Source of the DNA: a virus
Strand: one strand, 5' to 3'
IMG/VR virus record: IMGVR_UViG_3300021963_000040
Span: 32,001 to 96,000 of that record
Length of the DNA stretch: 64,000 bases
Every line of letters begins with the position of its first letter. Position 1 is the first letter of the stretch. A program made the translations under genes and the position numbers. Shown here piece by piece: positions 54,178 to 57,561 of the stretch. The notes beneath the pieces were generated by a model. The model was not told the origin of the DNA, made no database searches, and was given only the letters and a program-made list of their open reading frames with translations.

Positions 54178-54206
54178 TTGACAACACCTGTAAATAAATA
54201 TATAAT
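54178..54206 (+). promoter_or_regulatory. Consensus sigma70 promoter with embedded late TAAATA motifs, driving the tmRNA operon
   Basis: TTGACA-17 nt-TATAAT; the spacer contains TAAATAAATA. Confidence 0.85.
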
Positions 54207-54227: not shown

Positions 54228-54335
54228 ATGCCTAGTCCACGTAGAGTAAGTCAAATCCTAAAAGGTAAAAAACCACCTAAGCCAAAAACTGTAAAGCAAA
54301 TGGCCAAACGAGTTGTCCGTAGAAAGAGTAAATAA
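54228..54335 (+). CDS. 35-aa Lys/Arg-rich peptide
   Basis: AAGGAG SD; MPSPRRVSQILKGKKPPKPKTVKQMAKRVVRRKSK. Confidence 0.7.
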   Translation: MPSPRRVSQILKGKKPPKPKTVKQMAKRVVRRKSK

Positions 54336-54337
54336 TC

Positions 54338-54403
54338 ATGGCATACAGAGCAAAAACTAAAACTCAAGCCGCAGTTCGTAGACAACTACGTAAGCGTAAA
54401 TAA
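54338..54403 (+). CDS. 21-aa Lys/Arg-rich peptide
   Basis: MAYRAKTKTQAAVRRQLRKRK; starts 2 nt after the previous stop codon. Confidence 0.55.
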   Translation: MAYRAKTKTQAAVRRQLRKRK

Positions 54404-54472
54404 TAAGAACAGCGTAAACTGTTATTAAGAAAAGTGTTCTGGACGCCGGTTCGACTCCGGCCAGGTCCACCA
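54404..54472 (+). ncRNA. ssrA: tmRNA acceptor piece (permuted two-piece tmRNA); 5' boundary approximate
   Basis: GGAC, T-arm GCCGG-TTCGACT-CCGGC, acceptor strand CAGGTCC-A-CCA. Confidence 0.9.
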
Positions 54473-54483
54473 TAAGGGGAACT

Positions 54484-54663
54484 ATGAATACTGCTCTAGT
54501 TTGGGTTTTGTCGATTACTGTTTTAGGACCTGTTCCTGAACATAAAATATACGCCAAATATAAAACCAAACAAGAGTGTGAGCAAGCGTTAGAGCAATCT
54601 AAAGCAGAGTACAAGTTGCAGAAAAAGAATGTGTCTGCAACTTGTACTGTAACAATGAAATAG
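54484..54663 (+). CDS. 59-aa protein encoded inside the tmRNA intervening segment
   Basis: AAGGGGA SD; MNTALVWVLSITVLGPVPEHKIYAKYKTKQECEQALEQSKAEYKLQKKNVSATCTVTMK; TAG stop. Confidence 0.7.
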   Translation: MNTALVWVLSITVLGPVPEHKIYAKYKTKQECEQALEQSKAEYKLQKKNVSATCTVTMK

Positions 54664-54675
54664 TATCCTTATGAT

Positions 54676-54855
54676 GGGCCTGCACTTGGTTTCGACAGGG
54701 CAAAGAGTAAGAATAATGGCGCTCGGGAATGTGAAACCCGTAGGATTGGGGTAACCCGGTCGAAGAAGCAAAAACGTAACTGCAAACGACGAACAGTTCG
54801 CATTAGCGGCCTAAACTCCGCTTAGGGTAGGAAATACCTCGTAACAGAAACAACC
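54676..54855 (+). ncRNA. ssrA: tmRNA coding piece with tag reading frame ANDEQFALAA; 3' boundary approximate
   Basis: 5' GGGCCTG-CACTTGGTTTCGAC; resume codon GCA at 54782, TAA at 54812-54814; G3:U70 pair with the acceptor piece. Confidence 0.92.
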
Positions 54856-54882
54856 AATGCCCGCTTCGGCGGGCATTTTTTT
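54856..54882 (+). terminator. Intrinsic terminator of the tmRNA operon
   Basis: AATGCCCGC-TTCG-GCGGGCATT plus T-run. Confidence 0.9.
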
Positions 54883-55006
54883 GGTTAATTTGTTCAAAAA
54901 ACTGTTATTTTTCAATGGTTACTATTGTATAAATGTGGTTACGTACTATATACTATGTATTCGGTGTAACAGCCGGTATACAAATCTTAATATTAAGGAA
55001 AAATAA

Positions 55007-55887: not shown

Positions 55888-55926
55888 ATATAGAGACTTG
55901 ACAGTCTCTATATTTTTACATACAAT
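55888..55926 (+). promoter_or_regulatory. Terminator-like hairpin containing the -35 box of the tRNA promoter
   Basis: ATATAGAGACT/AGTCTCTATAT; TTGACA(55898)-17-TACAAT(55921). Confidence 0.75.
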
Positions 55927-55979: not shown

Positions 55980-56055
55980 GCGTCTGTAGCTAAGTGGAAC
56001 AGCAGAAGCCTCTAAAACTTCAGAAGCGTGGGTTCGATTCCCACCAGACGCACCA
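55980..56055 (+). tRNA. tRNA with CUA anticodon (amber suppressor)
   Basis: Acceptor GCGTCTG/CAGACGC-A-CCA; anticodon arm GAAGC-CTCTAAA-ACTTC (CTA at 56012-56014); T-arm GTGGG-TTCGATT-CCCAC. Confidence 0.85.
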
Positions 56056-56577: not shown

Positions 56578-57561
56578 GTGAAAAAATTATTCGTGACACT
56601 ACTGGCGGCTTTGGCCGTTTCAGCACAAGCACAGCAAATAGCCGGTGCAGGAGCAACATTTCCTGCTCCGGTTTATTCTAAGTGGGCTTCAGAATACCAC
56701 AAAGAAACTAAAGTACAAATCAACTACGGCCCATTAGGTTCTGCAGGCGGTATCAAACAATTAGAAGCTAATACAGTTAGCTTTGGCGCCACTGACGATC
56801 CTATGAGCGTAGAAGATCTTAACAAGAGAGGGTGGCATCAGTTTCCTGCAGTCATAGGCGGGGTGGTACTGGTTGTTAACCTTAAAGGATTCCAACCCGG
56901 AGAAATCGTTCTTGACGGACAGACAGTAGCAGACATCTATGAAGGCAAAATTCTAAATTGGAACGATCCTAAGATTGCAAAACTTAATCCTAAATTAAAA
57001 TTACCAGACCAACCTATCACTGCGGTAATTAGAGCAGACGGATCTGGAACTACTGCGGTGTTTACAGACTACTTGTCACAGGTCAGCAAGAGTTTTAAAG
57101 AAAGCACTGGTGTAGGTAAGATGGTTAGTTGGAAACTAAAGCAAGTCAGTGCAGGTAAAGGTAACGCAGGTGTTGCCGCAATGGTACAGAACATGAACGG
57201 TGCCATTGGTTATGTTGAATATGCCTTTGCCAAACAAGGTAAGATGACACACGTAGCAATGTTAAACAAAGGCAAAGTCATACAGCCCGACGACTTAACA
57301 TTCAAACAAGCCACAAGTTCTGCTAATTGGAACACTCCAGGAATGGCTGTAAACTTAACCAACAAGGATGGTTGGCCAATCACAGCCGCTACCTTTGTGT
57401 TAGTATACAAAGAAGGCAATGCCAAGACACAGGATGTATTAAAATTCTTTGACTGGGCATTTACCAAAGGCGACAAGATGGCAGAAGACCTAGACTATGT
57501 ACCTTTACCTGACAAAGTAAAAGCACAGATCCGAGCAGACTGGGCAAAGAACATCAAATAG
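56578..57561 (+). CDS. pstS: Phosphate ABC transporter substrate-binding protein PstS
   Basis: Signal peptide; GAGATFPAP, GSAGG, RADGSGTT, GAIGYVE, WPITAAT. Confidence 0.95.
   Translation: MKKLFVTLLAALAVSAQAQQIAGAGATFPAPVYSKWASEYHKETKVQINYGPLGSAGGIKQLEANTVSFGATDDPMSVEDLNKRGWHQFPAVIGGVVLVVNLKGFQPGEIVLDGQTVADIYEGKILNWNDPKIAKLNPKLKLPDQPITAVIRADGSGTTAVFTDYLSQVSKSFKESTGVGKMVSWKLKQVSAGKGNAGVAAMVQNMNGAIGYVEYAFAKQGKMTHVAMLNKGKVIQPDDLTFKQATSSANWNTPGMAVNLTNKDGWPITAATFVLVYKEGNAKTQDVLKFFDWAFTKGDKMAEDLDYVPLPDKVKAQIRADWAKNIK

Follow-up and report, generated by a model that had tools for sequence, protein, structure and literature searches.

The region analysed contains a transcription unit that probably gives two products (we put the probability at about 0.7), namely a phage two-piece tmRNA and a 59-residue protein encoded in the spacer between the two pieces. 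The spacer is closed by a stem that the gene would have co-opted, and translation of the gene would be timed. The stretch of DNA analysed, here called the window, comprises bases 32001-96000 (64 kb) of a virus record of 134.8 kb, which is judged to be ~38% complete. Unless a related locus is named, coordinates are those of the window, and all features of the unit lie on the + strand.

ARAGORN predicts a permuted tmRNA at 54380-54905 with the tag ANDEQFALAA, and the Rfam family RF04321 (tmRNA_permuted) matches 54411-54814 with 114.7 bits (E = 1.2e-21, cut-off 47), so that the gene is a circularly permuted (two-piece) one. By the ARAGORN domain limits and the sequence, the 3' half of the tRNA-like domain, or acceptor piece (54434-54472; T arm, 3' acceptor strand and an encoded ACCA ending at 54472), lies upstream of the 5' half, which starts the coding piece (54676-54703; GGGCCUG acceptor strand with a G3-U pair), and of the tag reading frame (54782-54814). 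The tag, ANDEQFALAA followed by a stop, has the hydrophobic degradation signal at its end. The G3-U70 alanine identity pair is U-G in 6/6 homologues (columns 6/218). Between the pieces is an intervening segment (IVS) of 203 nt (54473-54675), a length shared by five related loci. The only strong + strand site found upstream of the tmRNA in a promoter scan is a sigma-70-type promoter-like sequence at 54178-54206 (TTGACA-17-TATAAT, 12/12), and an intrinsic-terminator-like element (54856-54885), made of a 9-bp hairpin with 6 GC (54856-54877) and a T run, lies downstream.

A tmRNA can be charged only when its CCA 3' end is free and its G1 mature, so that a working tmRNA from this locus would require cleavage on both sides of the IVS. 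No match to PF01668, the family of the partner protein SmpB, was found in the 134.8-kb record, which is ~38% complete. The phage tmRNA presumably uses host SmpB, and the missing gene has no bearing on the identity of the RNA as a tmRNA. A blastn search of the tmRNA region against phage GenBank records gave no match.

The interval from the consensus promoter to the acceptor piece holds two tiny, very basic ORFs (54228-54335, 35 codons, and 54338-54403, 21 codons). Several DNA contigs from other runs match 54338-54404 at ~90%, and two have joints from ~54404 back to ~54228, an arrangement that points to a module repeated in relatives. Contigs from DNA runs X1 and X5, of other samples, join ~54472-54477 to ~54658-54686 and come from relatives whose tmRNA gene is without the ORF or differs in letters there. 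Further along the window, 56578-57561 carries an auxiliary metabolic gene of a type characteristic of aquatic phages, for a PstS-like phosphate-binding protein (PBP_like_2, E = 6e-36; phrog_5385). The related phage L120 has eleven tRNA genes (624-2489) directly upstream of its tmRNA, and the record of the window has only a tRNA(CUA) and one tRNA-Met.

The gene in the spacer has 59 codons (MNTALVWVLS...; 54484-54663), with its ATG at 54484 and a TAG at 54661-54663. That this intervening ORF is a real gene, as the preliminary description supposed, is clear from its conservation. A search with its protein gave one relative in viral contigs and seven loci in metagenome contigs (including a duplicate record and a fragment). 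In the six DNA homologues Nei-Gojobori dN/dS was 0.12-0.30 in 15/15 pairs, variable columns were distributed 28/19/44 by codon position, the third dominating, and the length was fixed at 59 codons in 6/6 loci. The protein database holds eight clusters of 64-100% identity, all 59 residues long, with 24 invariant columns that include W7, a TKQECEQ block and two cysteines. In addition, L127 has a 55%-identical homologue outside the IVS (875-1051), immediately ahead of the promoter for another permuted tmRNA gene, which has a 28-nt IVS. It ends with TAA, is without the hairpin found inside the window ORF (described below), and its last codons overlap the -35 box of the tmRNA promoter. The protein is therefore kept without the RNA context, and a comparison of L127 with the window indicates that the gene has moved into or out of the spacer.

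An AlphaFold2 model from a 9-row alignment (pLDDT 82.8) has a beta-beta-alpha-beta fold, which also argues for a real gene. Foldseek gave no match to this model in the PDB at E <= 0.001, and in BFVD it matched numerous phage proteins, all small and uncharacterised (best E 0.013, TM up to 0.84). The 59-aa protein fell into no family of Pfam (E <= 0.01) or PHROGs, and so there is no functional link of the protein to the tmRNA. In the ESM Atlas only unnamed viral clusters were found, at 0.85-0.89, below the guide value of 0.9; a lead to DUF1482 (0.80) was dropped as Pfam did not confirm it. The hydrophobic N-terminus was also considered as a membrane helix, a reading rejected because residues 5-26 form beta strands in the AlphaFold2 model, itself built from only 9 sequences. 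A contig of 227 nt from an RNA library (depth 6) spans 54322-54548 with 0 differences and so continues past the CCA end and into the ORF. The contig is compatible with an unprocessed precursor, shows no cut and is a weak hint of transcription, DNA carry-over being possible.

The preliminary description had proposed that the Shine-Dalgarno sequence (SD) and start of this gene pair with its own stop region and extend the acceptor stem of the tmRNA. As claimed, CATAAGGG (54471-54478) pairs with TCCTTATG (54666-54673), through seven Watson-Crick pairs and one G-U, and ACTAT (54481-54485) with ATAGT (54660-54664), through five pairs; each of these pairings forms in the computed MFE fold of 54405-54880. 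The fold has a z-score of -5.0 (0/100 shuffles fold as well) and contains one continuous helix made of the acceptor stem, ACCA/UGAU with one C-A mismatch, 8 bp, a 2x1 internal loop and a further 5-6 bp. The 5' strand of the closing stem (54473-54485) carries an SD-like AAGGGG (54474-54479) and reaches two bases into the start codon. The 3' strand (54660-54675) includes the TAG and then UGAU opposite ACCA, and RNase P is expected to cut after 54675. The UAG stop (54661-63) is paired to C54482-U54483-A54484, which brings both start and stop codon into contact with one helix. The predicted fold thus places SD, start and stop of the IVS ORF in a helix extending the acceptor stem.

Pairing is predicted to hide these signals once the spacer is complete. 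In the full precursor the core SD bases have a P(unpaired) of 0.01-0.04 and the AUG averages 0.23, values that change little in the excised IVS alone; averaged over the SD, the prediction is 0.17 for the precursor and 0.22 for the IVS by itself. In nascent transcripts ending before 54668 the thermodynamic prediction for the SD is a mean P(unpaired) of 0.36-0.59, falling to 0.17 from 54675 on. On this model, a co-transcriptional window of ~190 nt is predicted for ribosome loading.

The same helix is found in the close homologues, a set made up of the window and five related loci with 203-nt IVSs and a gap-free alignment (ARAGORN gives the IVS of L124 as 53 nt, and its 5' domain limits were reset by motif). 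The 21-pair helix is paired in 126/126 cells (100%) of the six loci, against 34-46% in a slid-register control computed over the whole structure tested (helix and hairpin core). Changes in the IVS part of the helix are all one-sided (GC/GU or AU/GU) with no double compensatory change, and the sole two-sided change falls in the acceptor stem itself.

A wider family was collected by a pattern scan of viral contigs, which gave at least 118 stretches. With L001 and L120 added this made 120 loci, in which (among the matches listed, plus L001 and L120) ARAGORN finds 77 permuted and 19 standard tmRNAs. The length of the IVS ranges from 4 to 211 nt among the matches listed. A search for bacterial genes with the same pattern gave 120 loci and 109 ARAGORN tmRNA calls, of which only three are permuted, each with an IVS of 3-4 nt. 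Among the matches listed there are 59 distinct IVSs of at least 28 nt, of which the 55 ending in TGAT, TAAT or TGAC were retained and the other 4 dropped. They were aligned by register (position k after the CCA against position k before the terminal tetramer), not by a model. In these 55 IVSs (among the matches listed) the first 12 positions are 89% paired in register compared with 41-58% when shifted, and positions 5, 7 and 9-11 have four or five pair types. The covariation that the preliminary description had named as a check is therefore found across the wider family, the close homologues having only GC/GU and AU/GU exchanges. To judge from these alignments, the closing helix is a covarying feature of the phage two-piece tmRNA family and is not peculiar to the window.

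Spacers with and without an ORF differ in this helix. The end-to-end duplex is weaker in ORF-bearing IVSs (median -8.4 kcal/mol, n = 24) than in ORF-less ones (-13.1 kcal/mol, n = 29; among the matches listed), with a Mann-Whitney p of 6e-6 that is inflated by relatives within the sets. An SD-like tetramer is present in the first 12 nt of 17/24 ORF-bearing and 4/35 ORF-less IVSs (among the matches listed; Fisher p 4e-6, inflated in the same way). Such related sequences include, for example, the window with L120, and L030/L040/L045, and hence the p-values overstate independence. Of the 39 distinct IVSs of at least 75 nt among the matches listed, 17 have an ATG in the first 22 nt and an ORF end in the last 20 nt; interior shuffles gave a mean of 3.5 and a maximum of 10 in 1000. 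In twelve of these 17 the stop codon is the TGA within the terminal TGAT, a single base ahead of the cut, and in four it is a TAG 12 nt earlier, as in the window (both counts among the matches listed).

Seven further IVS ORFs (among the matches listed; L006, L103, L030, L040, L045, L074 and L076), SD-led or ATG-led, overrun the cut site and run 27-39 nt past the expected RNase P site, so that maturation would leave them stop-less. The unrelated IVS ORFs of L019, L020, L023, L060, L065, L066, L080, L098 and L111 have 22-35 codons and are strongly hydrophobic (best 15-residue Kyte-Doolittle mean 2.6-3.6), resembling single-pass membrane peptides. An ArfA-like non-stop reading was rejected for the window, where the TAG precedes the cut site by 12 nt; it may still apply to other IVS ORFs, those whose stop is the terminal TGA or which run beyond the site.

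As the stem is present, and stronger, in ORF-less spacers of the same tmRNA family, our reading is that it was first a processing structure, which would have been inherited from such spacers and then co-opted and weakened by the gene. The link between stem and gene made in the preliminary description thus stands in part: SD, start and stop do lie in the stem, but the stem is not special to the gene.

The sequences show the gene, a helix that covaries throughout the family and is weaker in ORF-bearing spacers and, by prediction, occlusion; we infer how the steps follow one another, which enzymes act and that any protein is produced. Transcription would run from the promoter near 54178 to the terminator near 54880. 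The ancestral helix continuing the acceptor stem is presumed to have been the handle for excision of the spacer. Its purine-rich 5' strand would have been turned into a ribosome-binding site, with the 3' strand supplying the stop codon; SD, start and stop would therefore be mutually paired once the whole spacer is transcribed. Selection may have loosened the helix and would not have lost it. Ribosomes would load mainly co-transcriptionally, while the 3' strand has yet to be synthesised, or when the weakened stem breathes. The stem would then close and shut off initiation, and nucleases would convert the RNA into the two tmRNA pieces, RNase P cutting at G1 and an endonuclease with 3' trimming producing the CCA end.

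The preliminary description held folding for RNase P maturation and translation of the inner ORF to be mutually exclusive. Exclusion of translation and processing is a prediction only. RNase P generally prefers a single-stranded leader and a free CCA, and a leader-trailer duplex should hinder it. For this reason folding for RNase P is the wrong opposite of translation. The duplex is more likely to be a target for another nuclease, or to be opened by ribosomes, than to be an aid to RNase P. A bolder version, which we think rather improbable, is that about one co-transcriptional round of translation takes place per precursor, and that the ribosome ending at the TAG, 12 nt before the RNase P site, opens the duplex and licenses maturation. 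The spacer would then be an exchangeable slot for small genes, some of which would be stop-less after maturation and become substrates of their own tmRNA. If maturation were licensed in this way, the dose of the protein would be tied to that of the tmRNA.

In mitochondrial tRNA punctuation and in bacterial co-transcripts of the tRNA-tufB type, RNase P cuts mRNA out at tRNA shapes. The locus described here is similar in that tRNA-shaped structures mark mRNA cut sites in a longer transcript. It differs in that the flanks are two halves of one tRNA-like domain, so that excision of an mRNA and assembly of the stable RNA are the same event. The excised spacer could itself be the messenger, a 203-nt mini-mRNA released by RNase P and the CCA-end nuclease, whose end pairing protects it from exonucleases and throttles initiation. 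Such a messenger is a possibility, if an unlikely one: the spacer alone is predicted to keep the end-to-end stem, with an SD P(unpaired) of 0.22 and a free UGAU tail, and in 17/39 long IVSs (among the matches listed) the ORF fills the spacer from about position 11 to the last 1-15 nt, making the excised piece almost one cistron. However, an RNase III-type cut in the closing helix would lose the SD, which is 2-7 nt from the CCA end, and the excised IVS of Coxiella 23S rRNA is described as rapidly degraded in part of the text of PMC4990558. That IVS, in Coxiella burnetii, is the nearest printed parallel checked, being likewise a stem-closed segment with an ORF (S23p) that is cut from a stable-RNA precursor, in its case by RNase III from helix 45 of the rRNA (PMC4990558, the same part of the text). 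The S23p ORF is reported to be decaying and apparently not translated in vivo (PMC4990558, as before), which by analogy counts against translation here. The phage ORF itself is not S23p, as its host RNA is a tmRNA and the 59-aa protein has 0 Pfam families at E <= 0.01. Unlike its Coxiella counterpart, the phage ORF shows purifying selection, and the closing stem contains its SD, start and stop. Selection also speaks against reading the ORF as a passenger, neutral or never translated, that sits as a selfish or decaying insertion in a spacer that tolerates it, as has been proposed for S23p. We regard a passenger as quite improbable in the window. The spacer does tolerate lengths of 4 to 211 nt (among the matches listed), bacterial relatives with the same pattern have only 3-4 nt (3 permuted among 109 tmRNA calls), and the SD is predicted to be mostly paired. 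Nevertheless, purifying selection in 15/15 pairs, 59 codons in 6/6 loci, SD enrichment together with weaker stems in ORF-bearing IVSs (among the matches listed) and retention of the same protein outside the IVS in L127 are not what a passenger would give.

In hok and in AapA1 of Helicobacter, long-range 5'-3' pairing hides the SD of a very small ORF until processing or co-transcriptional timing exposes it. End pairing that hides the SD of a small ORF is common to those systems and to the window, where the pairing comes from a tRNA-like processing helix. The ORF might by this likeness be a type I toxin, a small hydrophobic peptide silenced by the fold-back and activated by RNA processing. In addition to the buried SD, the hydrophobic N-terminus of the window ORF and the many other IVS ORFs that are hydrophobic peptides of 22-37 residues (among the matches listed) would suit a toxin. 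The protein, however, has no Pfam match, Hok included, and none in PHROGs; the AlphaFold2 model turns the N-terminus (strands at 5-26) into a beta-hairpin of a small soluble fold, not a membrane helix; and the promoter scan shows no promoter or antisense RNA of note opposite the ORF. A Hok/Gef assignment was rejected on these grounds, and a type I toxin of any kind seems very improbable. Least probable of all, and close to negligible, is the switch suggested in the preliminary description, in which a neighbouring amber-suppressor tRNA causes read-through of the TAG across the coding piece and ties tmRNA maturation to suppression. The tRNA is real: an anticodon CUA gene with encoded CCA, of the kind carried by stop-codon-recoded phages, lies at 55980-56055 (61 bits over 55980-56052) behind its own promoter-like site (55898-55926). 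None of the tRNAs in related stretches has CUA, a weak negative as these stretches are short. After the TAG the frame of the window is open for ~50 codons, and in L122 the TAG is the only stop between the IVS ORF and the tag frame, which read-through would enter. The IVS ORF is in phase with the tag frame in L120, L122, L124 and L125. These four, out of five full homologues, differ from the window in the frame that follows the TAG; the stops vary among all, and L120 meets a TAA. Moreover, TAG at -15 to -13 is a stem motif of the family, present in 13/55 IVSs (among the matches listed), ORF-less ones included. Code 11 suits the genome well: 89.1% of it is covered by ORFs of 100 aa or more, 15/158 of which end in TAG, and coverage with TAG as sense (92.1%) brings no extra gain over that with TGA as sense (91.8%). 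The phage was accordingly rejected as TAG-recoded, its genes not being broken by TAG. With the frame past the TAG unconserved and the TAG a stem motif, read-through as a switch was not upheld, and the two-product unit with a co-opted stem and timed translation is the reading that we prefer.

The ORF also contains the perfect 15-nt inverted repeat that had been described (54608-54622 / 54634-54648), forming a 15-bp hairpin with an 11-nt loop (54608-54648, -22.5 kcal/mol). Among the 8 pairs listed, it is one of two perfect repeats of at least 15 nt with arms within 60 nt in the 64-kb window; the other, among the same pairs, is a 17-bp inverted repeat with a 35-nt spacer at 63398-63466. Against shuffles the hairpin has a z of -5.6, and the L120 version one of -1.9. 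Relatives have only an 8-bp core (89.6% of cells paired), in which two pairs show two-sided changes and two are broken. The 15-bp hairpin is therefore non-random but lineage-specific, and was rejected as a general IVS feature (z -5.6 in the window against -2.9 at best elsewhere). As it overlaps the codons of the conserved Tyr43 and Cys54, protein and RNA constraint are inseparable there. It could be a nuclease site, a stabiliser or a by-product.

Two-piece tmRNAs are reported to be common in marine and aquatic phages, making up 53/133 unique phage tmRNA structures, for example in the OM43 phage Melnitz (PMC9004378, part of the text). The gene in the window shares with known permuted genes (RF04321, the betaproteobacterial type and Melnitz) the order acceptor piece-IVS-coding piece, the encoded CCA, the G3-U pair and a tag of the ANDxxFALAA type. 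In contrast to the three bacterial permuted genes fetched (IVS 3-4 nt), its IVS is 203 nt long, stem-closed and protein-coding. A 2025 paper on a tmRNA database has a tRNA-Ala gene and a repetitive element within IVSs, and part of its text holds no mention of a protein gene (PMC11915505). Our literature searches found no paper describing protein genes in tmRNA IVSs. Two-piece tmRNAs of aquatic phages are thus already in print, and a spacer-borne, selected protein gene with signals built from the stem was not found there.

Spacers of stable RNAs are regarded as waste, and gene callers and tmRNA annotators disregard their contents. Here the spacer carries a selected gene whose translation signals are built from the RNA-processing helix; making of the protein and of the tmRNA would therefore compete with or succeed each other on one molecule. 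If this coupling is true, a phage would have a compact means of matching the timing or dose of a small protein to its own tmRNA, and the locus would offer a tractable system in which ribosomes compete with RNase P or RNase III for a single RNA. More widely, the sequence data point to the spacer as a slot for many unrelated small ORFs. Such a slot bears on the discovery of small proteins and on the placement of new genes in phage genomes.
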